From IMG/VR virus record IMGVR_UViG_2531839454_000016: a DNA stretch of 16,885 bases; one strand, given 5' to 3'. Shown in pieces: positions 1 through 10,197 of the stretch (position 1 is the stretch's first letter; each line of letters begins with the position of its first letter). The notes beneath the pieces were generated by a model. The model searched no databases, was not told where the DNA came from, and was given only the letters and a program-made list of their open reading frames with translations. The position numbers and the translations under genes were made by a program. This DNA is from a virus (taxonomy: Duplodnaviria > Heunggongvirae > Uroviricota > Caudoviricetes).

Positions 1-233
1 GCACATCCGATGGCAAGAGGCCCGAAGGTCCCCCTCTTTGGTCTTGCGACGTTATGCGGTATTAGCTACCGTTTCCAGTAGTTATCCCCCTCCATCAGGC
101 AGTTTCCCAGACATTACTCACCCGTCCGCCACTCGTCAGCGAAGCAGCAAGCTGCTTCCTGTTACCGTTCGACTTGCATGTGTTAGGCCTGCCGCCAGCG
201 TTCAATCTGAGCCATGATCAAACTCTTCAATTT
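1..233 (-). rRNA. rrsG: 16S ribosomal RNA, 5' portion only (gene continues past the window start); mature 5' end at about 233
   Basis: Reverse complement of 170-233 reads AAATTGAAGAGTTTGATCATGGCTCAGATTGAACGCTGGCGGCAGGCCTAACACATGCAAGTCGAACGG, the canonical enterobacterial 16S 5' end. The rrsG assignment is inferred from the adjacent clpB, as in E. coli K-12. Confidence 0.9.
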
Positions 234-676: not shown

Positions 677-3250
677 TTACTGGACGGCGACAATCCGGTC
701 TTCATTAACTTCCAGGCGAATCACTTTACCCGGAACCAATTCACCAGACAGTATTTGCTGTGCCAGCGGGTTTTCGATCTGCTGCTGGATAGCACGTTTC
801 AAAGGACGTGCACCATAGACTGGATCGTAACCGTTCTCGCTCAGCAGTTTCAGCGCCTCGTCAGAAATGTGGATTTCATAACCACGTTCTTCCAGACGTT
901 TGTACAGACGTTTCAACTGAATCTGCGCAATCGAGGCAATGTGCTGTTCACCCAGCGGATGGAAGACCACCACTTCATCAATACGGTTAATGAATTCCGG
1001 ACGGAAGTTATGGCTTACCACACCGAGCACCAGCTCTTTCATGTGCGCATAATCCAGTTCACCGAAGCGTTCCTGAATCAAATCGGAACCGAGGTTAGAG
1101 GTCATAATGACAACCGTATTACGGAAGTCGACCGTTCTCCCCTGCCCGTCAGTCAGACGACCATCATCCAGTACCTGCAACAGAATGTTGAAGACATCCG
1201 GATGCGCTTTTTCCACTTCATCCAGCAGGATGACGGAATACGGACGACGACGCACAGCTTCGGTCAGGTAGCCACCTTCTTCATAACCGACATATCCCGG
1301 AGGCGCACCAACCAGACGAGACACCGAGTGTTTCTCCATAAACTCGGACATATCGATACGGACCATCGCCTCGTCGCTATCAAACATAAAGTTCGCCAGC
1401 GCCTTACAAAGCTCAGTTTTCCCCACACCCGTTGGGCCGAGGAACAGGAATGAACCAATCGGGCGATTTGGATCCGCCAACCCCGCACGGCTACGGCGAA
1501 TAGCGTTAGATACCGCATCAACCGCTTCGTTCTGACCAATGACGCGATGGTGCAGTTCTTGCTCCATACGCAGCAGTTTTTCGCGCTCGCTTTCCATCAT
1601 GCGAGAAACCGGAATCCCCGTCCAACGCGCCAGCACTTCAGCAATTTCGGCGTCGGTCACTTTATTACGCAACAGACGCATAGTTTTGCCTTCGAGCTGC
1701 GTTGCGGCTTCCAGTTGCTTTTCCAGTTCCGGGATTTTGCCGTATTGCAGTTCAGACATCCGCGCCAGGTCCCCCACACGGCGAGCCTGTTCAATAGCGA
1801 TTTTCGCCTGTTCCAGTTCCGCTTTAATGGTCTGCGTACCAGAAAGCGATGCCTTCTCTGCTTTCCACTCTTCTTCTAACTCGGAGTACTGACGTTCTTT
1901 GTCGCTCAGTTCTTCGTTGAGCATATCCAGGCGTTTTTTACTGGCTTCATCAGACTCTTTCATTAACGCCTGTTGTTCCAGTTTGAGCTGGATGATACGA
2001 CGATCGAGTCGGTCGAGTTCTTCTGGTTTTGAGTCAATCTGCATACGAATGCTGGATGCTGCTTCATCGATCAGGTCGATGGCTTTATCCGGCAGCTGAC
2101 GGTCAGCAATGTAGCGATGAGACAACGTCGCCGCTGCAACAATTGCCGGGTCAGTAATTTGCACATGGTGGTGCAATTCGTAACGTTCTTTCAGGCCACG
2201 CAGAATCGCAATGGTATCTTCAACAGAAGGCTCGGCAACAAACACTTTCTGGAAACGACGTTCCAGCGCAGCATCTTTTTCGATGTACTGGCGATATTCG
2301 TCAAGCGTCGTGGCACCTACGCAGTGCAATTCACCACGCGCCAGCGCCGGTTTCAGCATGTTTCCGGCGTCCATTGCGCCATCGGCTTTACCCGCGCCGA
2401 CCATGGTATGTAATTCGTCGATAAACAGGATGACGTTGCCTTCCTGTTTGGCAAGATCGTTAAGCACGCCTTTTAAACGTTCTTCAAACTCACCGCGATA
2501 TTTCGCCCCAGCCCCCAGCGCGCCCATATCCAGCGCCAGTACGCGGCGGCCTTTCAATCCTTCCGGCACTTCGCCGTTGATAATACGCTGCGCCAGACCT
2601 TCAACGATGGCAGTTTTACCGACGCCGGGTTCACCAATCAGTACCGGGTTATTTTTAGTACGACGTTGCAGCACCTGAATGGTACGGCGAATTTCTTCAT
2701 CACGACCAATCACCGGATCGAGTTTGCCCTGTTCGGCTCGTTCGGTAAGGTCGATGGTATATTTTTTCAAAGCCTGACGTTGGTCTTCAGCACCTTGATC
2801 GTTCACGCTTTCACCTCCACGCATTTGTTCAATCGCTTGAGTAATGTTGGCGGTGGTCGCCCCTGCTGCTTTCAGGATGTCGGCCAGCGTGCCGCGAGAC
2901 TCAAGTGCCGCCAGAACGAACAGTTCTGACGAGATAAAGTTATCACCACGTTTTTGCGCCAGCTTGTCGCAAAGATTAAGAACGCGCACCAGATCCTGTG
3001 ATGGCTGGACATCACCACCAGTACCTTCAACCTGCGGTAAACGATTTAATGCCTGATTGATATCTGTGCGCAACTGGCCAGCATTTATGCCAGCGGATGT
3101 TAATAAAGGACTAACCGAACCCCCTTCCTGATTCAGCAGGGCGCTCATTAAATGAAGTGGTTCGATAAATTGGTTGTCGTGCCCGAGTGCAAGTGATTGG
3201 GCATCGGCAAGAGCAAGCTGGAATTTATTAGTAAGACGATCCAGACGCAT
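677..3250 (-). CDS. clpB: ClpB disaggregase (Hsp100 AAA+ chaperone), 857 aa
   Basis: ORF 677..3262; translation from [20 protein letters not shown] to NEDRIVAVQ matches ClpB, with two AAA+ modules (GEPGVGKT and GPTGVGKT Walker A) and a coiled-coil middle domain. Start placed at the MRLDR ATG, preceded by GGGAGGAG. Confidence 0.95.
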
Positions 3251-3287
3251 AACTCCTCCCATAACGGATCAAAGTTGCTACTGGAGA

Positions 3288-3320
3288 TTAAATGAGGTCA
3301 TCCCTCAATTATTCAAGGTT
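3288..3320 (-). promoter_or_regulatory. Putative sigma32 heat-shock promoter of clpB
   Basis: Minus strand reads CTTGAATAATTGAGGGATGACCTCATTTAATC, with CTTGAA as -35 and CCTCATTTA as a sigma32-like -10 about 14 nt downstream. Confidence 0.55.
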
Positions 3321-3379
3321 ATTGACCAGATTAATGTGAAAAGAAAATCACGCGTACCGGATCGTCTTGATTCTTTAGG

Positions 3380-6722: not shown

Positions 6723-7529
6723 TTATGTAGCCGAAATGGTTGTGGTAATAGTCCCCCGAAGCCGCTGCGCTGCTACCTCAAAATAATGATCACTGGTTTC
6801 TATACCAATAAATTTTCGCCCTGCTTTCAGTGCAGCCACACCCGTTGTCCCTGACCCCATAAAAGGATCAAGGACTGTTCCGCCACTATTCACAGTCCTG
6901 ACCAGTTCCGCCATTAGTTCTTCTGGTTTTCCGGTCGGGTGCATTTTCTTTGACGGGATAACCGGGTACGTCATGCAGCCGTCGAACGGCCCCGAAGGCG
7001 ATTTATCTAAATGGCCTTTGCTGCCCCAGACGATGTATTCACACTGATGCCTGAAATACCCCGTATGGGGTGTTCGTGACCCCCTCCCCTTGTTCCACGC
7101 AATGATGCCGCGCCATGTAAAGCCGCTGGCCTGAAACGCATCGGTTAAAGCTGGTAGTTGTCGCCAGTCAGTAAATACCAGGGCATAACCGCCCGGCCTG
7201 ACTGCGCGGTGTGCCTGTGCCATCCATAATTGTGTCCAGTAAGCCCACGAACGGGCGTCCATGTTTTCACCCGCGAACCCATCAAAGCGGTGAAGGTTCT
7301 CGCTGTTCAGATATTTTGCATGGCTGCCCTGGTTGGTGCGTCCGGCTTTGTGTGTCGCCCCCGAACTGTAAGGCGGGTCAGTGATTAAGGCATCAATGCT
7401 TTCTGGCTCAATCAGCGGCAATATTTCCAGCGCATTCCCACGACAGAGCGTGGCATTGTCAGTCTGATAAACCTTAGTGTGTTCCGGTGTATGTGCTGGT
7501 TGGTGCTGGATTGCGATCCCCACGGTCAT
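6723..7529 (-). CDS. DNA methyltransferase, amino-methyltransferase type (N6-adenine or N4-cytosine), 268 aa
   Basis: ORF 6723..7529; DPPY catalytic motif near the N-terminus (LITDPPYSSG) and AdoMet-binding FxGxG near the C-terminus (DPFMGSGTTG); ATG preceded by SD GAGGAG. Confidence 0.8.
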   Translation of the reverse strand: MTVGIAIQHQPAHTPEHTKVYQTDNATLCRGNALEILPLIEPESIDALITDPPYSSGATHKAGRTNQGSHAKYLNSENLHRFDGFAGENMDARSWAYWTQLWMAQAHRAVRPGGYALVFTDWRQLPALTDAFQASGFTWRGIIAWNKGRGSRTPHTGYFRHQCEYIVWGSKGHLDKSPSGPFDGCMTYPVIPSKKMHPTGKPEELMAELVRTVNSGGTVLDPFMGSGTTGVAALKAGRKFIGIETSDHYFEVAAQRLRGTITTTISAT

Positions 7530-7863: not shown

Positions 7864-8160
7864 TTAGCCATATTTGCGGGCAAAGTCTTCATCAGAGGTG
7901 CATAGATAGATAAAAAACTCAATAAATGCCACGATTGCCGGAATGAATGTCCAGCAAAAAATAAGGTAAAGGAATCCTTGCCCCACTTTACCTAAATAAA
8001 ATTTGTGTGCACCAAGACCACCTAAAAAGAAAGCCAGTAGTGCGGCTGTCATTCTGCTTTTTGAACTTGCTGTTCTTTGAGGTGCTCCACAATTGGGGCA
8101 GGATGTGGCATCTTTATGTATTTCCTTGCCGCATCCGCGACAAAATACCATTTCACTCAT
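7864..8160 (-). CDS. Small membrane protein with N-terminal zinc ribbon and C-terminal TM2 domain, 98 aa, function unknown
   Basis: ORF 7864..8160; CRGCGKEIHKDATSCPNCG zinc ribbon; TM2 signature LLAFFLGGLGAHKFYLGKVGQGFLYL with two predicted TM helices; SD AAGGAA upstream. Confidence 0.7.
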   Translation of the reverse strand: MSEMVFCRGCGKEIHKDATSCPNCGAPQRTASSKSRMTAALLAFFLGGLGAHKFYLGKVGQGFLYLIFCWTFIPAIVAFIEFFIYLCTSDEDFARKYG

Positions 8161-8295
8161 AAAGAGTTCCTTTCAAATTTAAATAAGCGTTAAGCCCACC
8201 ACTCTTACTGGTGGGCCTCAATTTAAATTTGGGTGCCACTTCGACCATACCCTGGCAACCGATTGACGGGGGATTGCTCCCCCGTCGCGGTTTCC

Positions 8296-8436
8296 TTACT
8301 GCTTACACTGTAAGAACGCCGCAAACTCCGCTCCCCAGAAGCTCATCCGTATTTCACACAGCGAACCGTGCAGCATCCAGATGATGAGGATTACCGTCAC
8401 GCAGAACGTGATGGCCGTAAGCGATTTTTGCGACAT
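8296..8436 (-). CDS. Hok/Gef-family small membrane toxin homologue, 46 aa
   Basis: Hand translation of the minus strand gives MSQKSLTAITFCVTVILIIWMLHGSLCEIRMSFWGAEFAAFLQCKQ: a hydrophobic TM helix followed by the Hok signature SLCEIR...E.AAFL.CK. SD AAGGAG lies 8 nt upstream. Below the 60-aa cut-off of the ORF track. Confidence 0.75.
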   Translation of the reverse strand: MSQKSLTAITFCVTVILIIWMLHGSLCEIRMSFWGAEFAAFLQCKQ

Positions 8437-8627
8437 AGCGCTTGCTCCTTTGTTGGAGAGGCGCTAACCTATCACTTGCTTAAGGTAGATATGTTAGGGC
8501 CTCGGTTAAACAGAAATGTTTTCCGGGGCCTTTCCACATCTGGCCTTCGGGTATTCCCTCCGACCATCAGCCGAAAGGCACCCGCGCGTAATCTATCGCT
8601 TTTTTGTTACTCCGGCAATTCTGCCTG

Positions 8628-8888
8628 TTAATTCTGAGATAAAGGCAAACTCATCTGATTGTTTCCCCTGTGTGAAGCTGGCAGCTCATGCCACGGGATA
8701 CCTTCTGAAGAGTGAACGCCGGAGGCGTGTTTTGATGTGAATTTATGGAAAGCTTCCAGTGTTGAGAAGCATACGCCGCATTCCAGATTGTTACACTGGT
8801 AATACTTTTGCCGCACGGTGTTTGAATCATTTTCCGGACGACTGGTGCGGATACGGGCAGATGCGCCACAAAGCGGACAACGGAACAT
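8628..8888 (-). CDS. ogr: Ogr/Delta-family zinc-finger late transcription activator, 86 aa
   Basis: ORF 8628..8888; MFRCPLCGASARIRTSR...YYQCNNLECGVCF matches the P2 Ogr C-x2-C...C-x4-C motif; strong SD GGGAGG; located directly downstream of gpD as in P2. Confidence 0.85.
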   Translation of the reverse strand: MFRCPLCGASARIRTSRPENDSNTVRQKYYQCNNLECGVCFSTLEAFHKFTSKHASGVHSSEGIPWHELPASHRGNNQMSLPLSQN

Positions 8889-8930: not shown

Positions 8931-10040
8931 TCACTCTGTTTCCGCTATCCATTCCGGGATTTTTGCCTCAAGCTCAAGCTGCGTGGTAAAGCCGCTGTTA
9001 TCAATGGTGTGCTCGGCTTTTGCAATAATCCAGTCCTGATTATCAATCTCGCTTTTAAATCCTGTTACCGTGCCATGCATTTCGGGGTAGAGTTCTGCTC
9101 GTCCACGTGCCAGCGTGATGGAGAATGATGCGGCTCCGCGTTGTAGTTGTTGCCACTTTGCCGCCGCTGCGCGTCTTGCTGCCTGCTCGTTCTGATAAGT
9201 CTTGCGTAACACAAACACATTGCCTTCCGCGCCTTCCATATAATCACCTTCACGGCTGCTGCTTTTCTCCTTTTTGGGTTTTGGCGGTTTGCGGCGTTTC
9301 ACGCTGACTTTTTTCTTTTTCCCGTAATTAAGATCAAGCCAGTAGGCGCGTACCCCCGTATACGCCTCGCGGTCAGCAATGCGGAACTGATGGCGATCGC
9401 CGCTGCTGCGTGTAATGGCGAACGAGGGCAACGGCTGGCCCTGTGCGTTCACGCCACCGCCTGGCATAATGAATAACAGATTGCCGCTTTTTACCGTGGT
9501 GATTGCGCCCAGCATTTCCGCCATGCGCGTAAGGAAGGACATGTCGCTTTCTTCGGTCTGGTCGGCGTGGTCGATTTCGATATCCATCAGCATTTCGCTG
9601 ATTTGCGGTTTCAGACCGTACCGATGAGCGATGGCGGATACCACGCGCTCAACGGTCACATCATGCCAGGACACCTCACGTTTAACGTTAAATTCATCCC
9701 GAAAATCTGCGCTTCTGGCTGAAACAGTCAGCCTGTCCGGCGGTCCTTCGTGAGCGATTTCATCAACAATGTAAGTGCCTTTTTCTGTCAGCGGTTCTCC
9801 TTTCCAGCCAATGAGAACCGTCAGGCGCGCGCCCCGTGGCGGTAGCTGCAACTGACCATCCGCATCATCCAGCGTGATGGTGAGCTGGTCCGCCTCAAAT
9901 CCCCGGTTGTCGGTCAGTGACAGGCTCATCAGGCGCTCTGCCACGCCTGACAGCGTTTTACCCTCCGCGAGAATATCAAAATCCGGCATTTTCACGGGGT
10001 CTGTGCCCTGACTGAGCAATTGCATGGTGGTGTCGGTCAT
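8931..10040 (-). CDS. Phage tail protein D (P2 gpD, late control D family), about 370 aa
   Basis: ORF 8931..10172; start placed at MTDTTMQLL (ATG 10040-10038) preceded by GGGAGGGAG; size and sequence character match P2 gpD. Confidence 0.85.
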   Translation of the reverse strand: MTDTTMQLLSQGTDPVKMPDFDILAEGKTLSGVAERLMSLSLTDNRGFEADQLTITLDDADGQLQLPPRGARLTVLIGWKGEPLTEKGTYIVDEIAHEGPPDRLTVSARSADFRDEFNVKREVSWHDVTVERVVSAIAHRYGLKPQISEMLMDIEIDHADQTEESDMSFLTRMAEMLGAITTVKSGNLLFIMPGGGVNAQGQPLPSFAITRSSGDRHQFRIADREAYTGVRAYWLDLNYGKKKKVSVKRRKPPKPKKEKSSSREGDYMEGAEGNVFVLRKTYQNEQAARRAAAAKWQQLQRGAASFSITLARGRAELYPEMHGTVTGFKSEIDNQDWIIAKAEHTIDNSGFTTQLELEAKIPEWIAETE

Positions 10041-10197
10041 CTGCTCCCTCCCTGTGTGGCATGGTCGCATGTGCGTGCGGAGGGGGTTACTGCTTTTTGT
10101 TGTCGCCGTGGCGGGAGAATGGCGCAGGGGTGAGATTACGCGCGTGGTGGGTGATGATTGTTGCCGAATCATTTAACGGATACAAGGGGCTGAAGCT

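Follow-up and report, generated by a model that had tools for sequence, protein, structure and literature searches.

Plasmid R1's hok/sok locus (parB) is the textbook case of antisense control exerted via a leader peptide: R1 carries a 70-codon mok frame that is required for Hok, and saturation mutagenesis has lately reaffirmed mok as mandatory. In Escherichia coli K-12, mokA extends hokA in frame at the N-terminus. The sole experimental precedent from a prophage is hokW–sokW of the Shiga toxin (Stx) 2 prophage Sp5, which helps Sp5 release (PMC8621323); hokW encodes 51 amino acids (MKQQKAM...) and has an in-frame mokW ATG at −57, counted from the hok start. The locus described here lies on the minus strand of a viral DNA stretch of 16,885 nucleotides (nt) (IMG/VR record IMGVR_UViG_2531839454_000016; hereafter the window, to which all positions refer). 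Like hokW–sokW it is borne by a prophage, but it is a different paralogue, and it keeps the RNA scaffold of a hok locus while having no mok. It belongs to a large branch of the family, protein cluster 72 in the catalog cited below. We propose, at a probability of roughly 45%, that this cluster is a natural class of hok/sok working without a mok leader peptide, in which Sok would act by standby occlusion or by cleavage and never touch the ribosome-binding site.

The toxin gene is a minus-strand open reading frame (ORF) of 46 codons (8436–8296), whose product, read from the sequence, is MSQKSLTAITFCVTVILIIWMLHGSLCEIRMSFWGAEFAAFLQCKQ; the R1 peptide, by comparison, has 52 amino acids and is plasmid-borne. 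A preliminary description of the window had called this a Hok-family toxin with a good ribosome-binding site, and both points hold. Pfam HOK_GEF (PF01848) matches residues 7–44 at 30.1 bits (cutoff 22; E-value 3.7e−7), an assignment far above chance, and AAGGAG (8450–8445), the ribosome-binding site also found in R1, stands 8 nt 5′ of the hok ATG. The peptide has the hydrophobic stretch LTAITFCVTVILIIWML and the motifs GSLCEIR and AAFLQCKQ. Homologs fall into 68 protein clusters; G24, C27, E28, A36, E37, and C44 are unchanged across 25 relatives, 14 residues are invariant, and the 46-codon frame is unbroken from E. coli to Klebsiella. The closest NCBIfam model is HokA (NF007290), but at 35.8 bits the match falls far under the equivalog cutoff of 89, and the peptide is therefore not a HokA equivalog. 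The two have in common a C-terminus of the ..LCE..ELAAFLAC type and the direct encoding of both cysteines; unlike hokA with its in-frame extension, however, this locus has an in-frame TAG at −30 that is invariant among relatives.

As a toxin, the gene is already annotated, catalogued, and ordinary. Its reported omission from ORF calls is true of the first-stage track only, since RefSeq/PGAP lists it in E. coli E2855 as a "Hok/Gef family protein" (WP_000078920.1). The preprint "The Hok bacterial toxin" (bioRxiv 10.1101/2025.08.07.668861) lists the exact peptide in a supplementary alignment, as id 1628 of its 60%-identity cluster 72. In that study 42 of 45 overexpressed Hok constructs were toxic, and the two cluster-72 clones, 72_1621 (V15A relative to the window peptide) and 72_1589 (Stx-phage type), are not among the three named as non-toxic. 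The preprint treats coding sequences only; it does not describe the native leader, Sok, or the absence of mok, and it leaves Mok unanalyzed, noting that predicting Mok "is not trivial" (10.1101/2025.08.07.668861). Between lineages without mok, the pairwise ratio of nonsynonymous to synonymous substitution (dN/dS) in hok is 0.11–0.35. The peptide is thus under purifying selection, and on the strength of these ratios the cassette looks functional rather than decaying.

The absence of mok was established by scanning the three frames of 8437–8640 for ATG, GTG, TTG, CTG, ATT, ATC, and ATA. None of the seven codon types opens a frame that continues past 8436, as the preliminary description had stated of an overlapping mok; in contrast to R1, each of the three frames closes ahead of the hok ATG. 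The same script was applied to R1, hokC, and hokW, controls with a homologous leader, and places their mok ATGs at −58 in R1 (frame −1, ending at +155) and at −57, in frame, in hokC and hokW; mokA of K-12 is likewise in frame with hokA, per its annotation. A Klebsiella plasmid hok (L104) was dropped as a control, its leader being unrelated. In the three controls the mok ATG follows a conserved GAGGC by 6–8 nt. In the window the frame homologous to mok, assigned by sequence homology (AGG UUA GCx, compared with R1 and hokW), persists as a vestige without any start codon. The reading frames at issue are as follows.

8296–8436, minus strand: hok coding sequence, 46 amino acids, with Cys12, Cys27 (in LCE), and Cys44.
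8354–8479, minus strand: vestigial mok-homologous frame, in frame −1 to hok, open from −43 to +83 and preceded by TAA.
8472–8567 and 8480–8539, minus strand: upstream ORFs of 31 codons (ATG 8567) and 19 codons (ATG 8539).

Conservation was assessed in an alignment (A2) of 29 non-redundant full-length RNAs (<98.5% identical), drawn from P2-like prophages of E. coli, from Stx phages, and from E. albertii, Salmonella, and Klebsiella oxytoca; a viral scan returned mostly near-identical loci, and the divergent ones were gathered from contigs encoding homologs and by a pattern scan. At the site homologous to the mok ATG, a start codon is missing from all 29 representatives, though all keep the GAGG. 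More broadly, 225 loci gave 83 distinct sequences of leader plus coding region; of these, 50 are without an overlapping frame, 6 have a frame started only by GTG or TTG, and 27 have an ATG-started frame that overlaps hok. In those 27 the ATG sits at −130 or −103, a long way upstream and within structural elements, and whether the frame reaches hok is set by 1-nt indels and stops in a hypervariable stretch. Of the seven distinct Salmonella leaders sampled, five are devoid of ATG, and in none of the seven does an ATG open a frame that extends to hok. Since mok is missing in every lineage sampled, the mok-less state is old and stable.

It is conceivable, but quite unlikely in our estimation, that a mok equivalent is hidden in this leader: an ORF from ATG 8567 or ATG 8539, or a non-canonical start near 8490, might let ribosomes open the hairpin that closes the hok start, in which case Sok would still block leader translation. 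Both upstream ORFs do read across the Sok target, terminating 36–44 nt ahead of the hok ATG and close to the 5′ arm (8466) of that hairpin; GAAGG lies 4 nt ahead of ATG 8539, the site equivalent to the mok start reads AUA, and the same ATGs open the overlapping frames of the 27 relatives. Yet these ORFs shift in frame and length with every allele of the Sok-recognition stretch, they shrink to 4–8 codons in Stx-phage copies, and they have no counterpart in the Salmonella leaders devoid of ATG. ATG 8567, moreover, has no ribosome-binding site and is buried in the 5′ stem, and most alleles have neither a start nor a near-cognate codon past the GAGG. None of the upstream ORFs, whatever their type, is conserved among the relatives sampled, and the 31-codon ORF was rejected as a conserved mok substitute on that ground. 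Database labels of the type "MokW-like host killing" were also rejected as evidence of mok, the labeled product being the 46-amino-acid Hok itself. Mok-less hok/sok loci, an exception that is consistent across a large branch, were not found described in the literature open to full-text search, and the T1TAdb paper makes no mention of mok.

While mok is absent, the hok-type RNA scaffold around the gene is intact. The elements of the transcript are listed from its full body through its 5′, internal, and 3′ parts.

8231–8583, minus strand: full-length hok mRNA body, 353 nt, from 5′ tac to 3′ fbi.
8569–8583, minus strand: tac-like 5′ element GGGUGCCUUUCGGCU, which pairs with fbi in the full-length RNA.
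8498–8530, minus strand: Sok-target hairpin, the complement of which is the Sok terminator hairpin.
8478–8497, minus strand: Sok-recognition stretch (sokT), hypervariable, reading CTAACATATCTACCTTAAGC and containing no start codon at the spot that the mok ATG takes in classic loci.
8436–8466, minus strand: hairpin closing the hok AAGGAG and the A of its AUG (the start-site hairpin).
8309–8331, minus strand: invariant block GCGGAGTTTGCGGCGTTCTTACA inside hok, dcb-like, pairing with hok codons 1–5 (8434–8421).
8264–8287, minus strand: post-stop hairpin CGACGGGGGAGCAATCCCCCGTCA.
8231–8256, minus strand: 3′ fold-back region, comprising fbi (8246–8231) and GCCAGGG (8256–8250).

The consensus fold of the 29 relatives has 89 pairs, with 98.2% of cells paired. 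Eighteen pairs are altered on both sides, against 2–8 in slid-partner controls, and none of 500 shuffles reached 18. As in R1, tac pairs with fbi: alignment columns 1–7 pair with 361–367 and columns 10–14 with 352–357, these two helices (1 and 2) being 100% and 98.6% paired, and four of the five pairs in the second covary, in 7 sequences. A 5′ hairpin is also among the supported helices. The Sok-target hairpin (helix 5) is 100% paired with one GC-to-AU compensatory pair, and holds the invariant GAGG that, by alignment with the R1, hokC, and hokW leaders, is the mok ribosome-binding site of classic loci. The 3′ end pairs with the Sok-recognition region here as in R1: GCCAGGG and sokT form helix 6, with CG-to-UA and GC-to-AU compensatory changes. 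There is a parallel in a competition, reported in the title of a study cited in PMC1635323, in which the 3′ end of the hok mRNA and Sok vie for the region of mok initiation. The start-site hairpin (helix 7) is 99.4% paired, at a predicted −14.2 kcal/mol (RNAfold). Within the coding sequence, the 23-nt block at 8309–8331 shows no change in 29 sequences from four genera, synonymous sites included; it pairs with codons 1–5 as helix 8 (12 pairs, 100% paired), and exact copies occur in at least 120 IMG/VR contigs. The post-stop hairpin, another feature in common with R1, is helix 16, has five pairs with compensatory changes, and was flagged as terminator-like on the opposite strand by a scanner; it is likely the stop point for 3′ trimming. 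When the 3′ end is removed in silico (RNAfold), the 5′ end refolds locally, with tac predicted to pair onto 8549–8565, the unpaired probability of sokT rises from 0.25 to 0.41, and the start-site hairpin persists.

A covariance-model search, of the kind suggested in the preliminary description, recovers the leader by the same Rfam model that finds R1. RF01794 matches the minus strand at 8583–8426 with an E-value of 1.3e−9, at 47.9 bits against a gathering score of 59, so that a search at the gathering threshold returned no hok or sok family and the match appears only in the E-value search. R1, hokC, and hokW score 89–118 bits, and six other cluster-72 loci score 33–57 bits; the gathering score thus excludes all cluster-72 loci tested (the window and the six relatives). 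Despite its name, "sok antitoxin," RF01794 in fact covers the hok-sense leader, the 157 nt between the start of the mRNA and the hok AUG; in K-12 it matches the hokC strand (L102, 602–754), with the annotated sokC on the opposite strand.

Promoters for the mRNA and for an antisense RNA can be placed by homology and conservation; both calls rest on these grounds, because a consensus promoter scan of 8100–8750 found nothing. The corresponding features are as follows.

8590–8618, minus strand: putative hok promoter, −35 TTGCCG (8618–8613), 17-nt spacer, −10 TAGATT (8595–8590).
8442–8470, plus strand: Sok-like promoter, −35 TTGCTC (8442–8447), 17-nt spacer, −10 TAACCT (8465–8470).
8478–8535, plus strand: predicted Sok-like antisense RNA of ~58 nt, in which 18 nt of single-stranded 5′ tail are followed by a long hairpin and then UUUCC.

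A −10 box (TAGATT, TAAATT, or TAGAAT) is kept 6 nt 5′ of GGGTGCC in five unrelated upstream contexts, and this conservation would set the hok mRNA start near 8583, just past the ogr stop codon. The R1 Sok promoter reads TTGCGC, 17 nt, TATCCT, a layout matched by the Sok-like promoter of the window; in relatives the −10 variants TATCCT and TTTACT occur with spacing unchanged. As in R1, the −35 box of the putative Sok promoter lies across the sequence complementary to the hok ribosome-binding site, and the predicted Sok has one long hairpin behind its single-stranded 5′ tail (−21.5 kcal/mol, z = −3.61). It would lie at −42 to −99 from hok, in parallel with the annotated sokC at −49 to −107. The promoter and terminator hairpin are conserved and placed as in R1 and sokC, though the consensus match is weak. 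The plus-strand antisense RNA anticipated in the preliminary description at about 8440–8560 is hence supported by homology and narrowed to ~8478–8535, while its promoter is poor by consensus.

The segment to which the Sok tail would bind is the most variable feature of the cassette described here. Nucleotide diversity over the Sok tail and sokT (A2 columns 91–105) reaches 0.305 in P2-type copies from E. coli, against 0.06 overall, and the 20-nt sokT has many 1-nt indels among otherwise near-identical copies. Such variability would be expected if Sok–target specificity were under selection in genomes with up to seven copies, and by this pattern the variation looks like diversification of Sok specificity.

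Taken in order, these elements suggest how the locus may operate. A weak promoter (8618–8590) would yield a stable hok mRNA, inert and locked shut for as long as tac, at the 5′ end, is paired with fbi at the 3′ end. Trimming of the 3′ end back to the post-stop hairpin would free the 5′ end, which would refold locally and expose the Sok-recognition stretch; the short antisense RNA (8478–8535, plus strand) could then pair there and keep the toxin off, and decay of Sok would allow synthesis of the 46-amino-acid membrane peptide. Since a mok leader frame is missing, translation of Hok would have to begin directly at the AAGGAG/AUG of hok itself. The most economical model is that the single-stranded stretch just 5′ of the start-site hairpin serves as a ribosome standby site; Sok would bind 20–40 nt upstream of the hok start site, and RNase III cleavage of the duplex or occupation of the standby site is the probable mode of silencing. 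We infer Sok expression, 3′ processing, direct Hok translation, and the mode of Sok action from these elements. In tisB/istR-1, RNase III cleavage and standby-site occlusion silence the toxin mRNA. The likeness of the window to that system—an antisense acting far upstream of a structured ribosome-binding site, without a leader peptide—is a functional analogy only, sequence and fold being unrelated.

Several observations weigh against such a mok-independent mechanism. There are the 27 leaders with overlapping ATG-started frames. The start-site hairpin, predicted at −12.6 to −19.9 kcal/mol, is no less stable than in mok-dependent R1, hokC, and hokW (−13.8 to −16.3 kcal/mol), and no route for ribosome entry past it is apparent in the sequence. 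The hok promoter agrees with the consensus at 8 of 12 positions, where the scanner threshold is 9, and the Sok-like promoter at 6 of 12, with no scanner call. The constructs that proved toxic carried a synthetic ribosome-binding site, not the native leader (10.1101/2025.08.07.668861). In R1, finally, loss of the mok start, or stops before the hok ribosome-binding site, abolishes toxicity (PMC9841398), and it is these data that make the absence of mok meaningful here.

The same observations could be read differently, as those of a silent relic of a mok-dependent locus whose native transcript yields no Hok and which either hitch-hikes on prophages or is kept for Sok; in a variant of this view, the Sok RNA could neutralize incoming related hok mRNAs, as an anti-addiction device. 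The R1 mutagenesis, which shows that mok has to be translated as far as the hok ribosome-binding site (PMC9841398), fits such a relic, as do an initiation region shut by a hairpin of −14 kcal/mol and the reported inactivity of K-12 hok loci (PMC1635323). We nonetheless consider a relic unlikely: the low dN/dS and intact frame are unexpected of an untranslated gene, although RNA structure also slows change; mok is missing in all lineages sampled, and hence the state is old and stable; and the promoter, the tac/fbi pairing, and the ribosome-binding site are all conserved.

That the cassette is functional also agrees with the way in which it is distributed. Positions 8180–8640 (461 bases) are 100% identical to the E. 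coli E2855 chromosome, and the gene order agrees. One flank of the window carries rrsG, clpB, the RyfD small RNA, yfiH, rluD, bamD, and raiA; from ~6700 on, a P2-like prophage (P88/Xuanwuvirus type) contributes its right end, with a Com-like zinc ribbon and DNA methyltransferase, a TM2-domain protein, the hok cassette, ogr (8628–8888), gpD, and tail genes. Among complete E. coli genomes, 1545 of 5426 (28%) have DNA matches to the cassette, at up to seven copies per genome. The block common to Stx-phage copies and the window is 8604–8231, and most relatives diverge straight after 8231; the homology common to all contexts likewise runs from the promoter to fbi and ends there. This sharp end fits a mobile module of ~390 bp occupying cargo slots of prophages and plasmids, and we put at slightly better than even the chance that the window holds a self-contained ~390-bp hok/sok cassette, carried as cargo between ogr and the prophage right end and working without mok.

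Downstream of fbi, the flank is specific to the window and contains one further element.

8192–8217, minus strand: hairpin past fbi, GGCCCACCA...UGGUGGGCUU.

RNAfold gives −24.2 kcal/mol for 8231–8165; the hairpin has no U-tract and drew no scanner call, and by this prediction it may be a weak terminator. The neighboring gene (7864–8160, minus strand), which begins 70 nt past fbi, encodes a 98-amino-acid TM2-domain protein with an N-terminal zinc ribbon. Because most relatives diverge after 8231, the TM2 gene appears to be additional, less common cargo that has taken the place of the usual hok terminator. Neither the Hok peptide nor the TM2 protein matches any model in PADLOC-DB 2.0.

Other features of the window are more routine. 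An N6/N4 DNA methyltransferase (6723–7529, minus strand; type II or orphan methyltransferase in PADLOC) stands at the very end of the prophage and adjoins raiA, and an ORF for a zinc ribbon like Com of phage Mu overlaps its start (L003, 9970–10167); the pair recalls the com/mom layout, but the methylase is ordinary. The gpD ORF (8931–10172, minus strand) has 413 amino acids in the window, where PGAP gives a 266-amino-acid "VgrG/Pvc8 family" protein and a partial hypothetical, and the long N-terminal extension is probably not real. RyfD (3231–3369, minus strand; 125 bits) lies upstream of clpB, and the 5′ end of a 16S rRNA gene occupies the window edge (1–233, minus strand).

The copies of cluster 72 found elsewhere add some observations of their own. 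Sp5 (VT2-Sakai) carries a second, cluster-72 cassette, 81% identical and unannotated in AP000363, downstream of lom (L004, 1169–1309); the published hokW primers and 51-amino-acid product map elsewhere in Sp5, and deletion of hokW–sokW alone therefore leaves a second Hok toxin in place. Two Salmonella contigs have tandem cluster-72 cassettes ~490 bp apart (L092, 1501–1641 and 1991–2131; L093, 1501–1641 and 1995–2135), each with its own leader and with Sok-recognition sequences that differ between the two. A strong match to the small RNA STnc540 (186 bits; L010, 1809–1995, minus strand) lies directly downstream of the Salmonella diarizonae cassette. Contigs labeled Planococcaceae UBA3378 and Vagococcus sp. 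encode a hok peptide 100% identical to that of E. coli, and a Xanthomonas pisi contig has a 74% match (L005, L006, L009 group); all likely reflect enterobacterial contamination of the assemblies.

The identification of a large, conserved, and widespread branch with the whole hok RNA scaffold and yet without mok provides a natural experiment in how a closed toxin start opens, and in how an upstream antisense still silences it. The branch spans P2-like and Stx prophages, Salmonella, Klebsiella, and ~28% of complete E. coli genomes. It also bears on annotation: the Rfam gathering threshold misses every tested locus of the branch, and RefSeq gives "MokW-like" names to some Hok genes without Mok. 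R1 hok/sok lowers T4 plating, as quoted in PMC8621323, and the role of the cassette in P2-like and Stx prophages could be addiction, phage exclusion, or help in lysis. If cluster 72 indeed works without its leader peptide, the rule derived from R1 that mok is required would not be general for the family.

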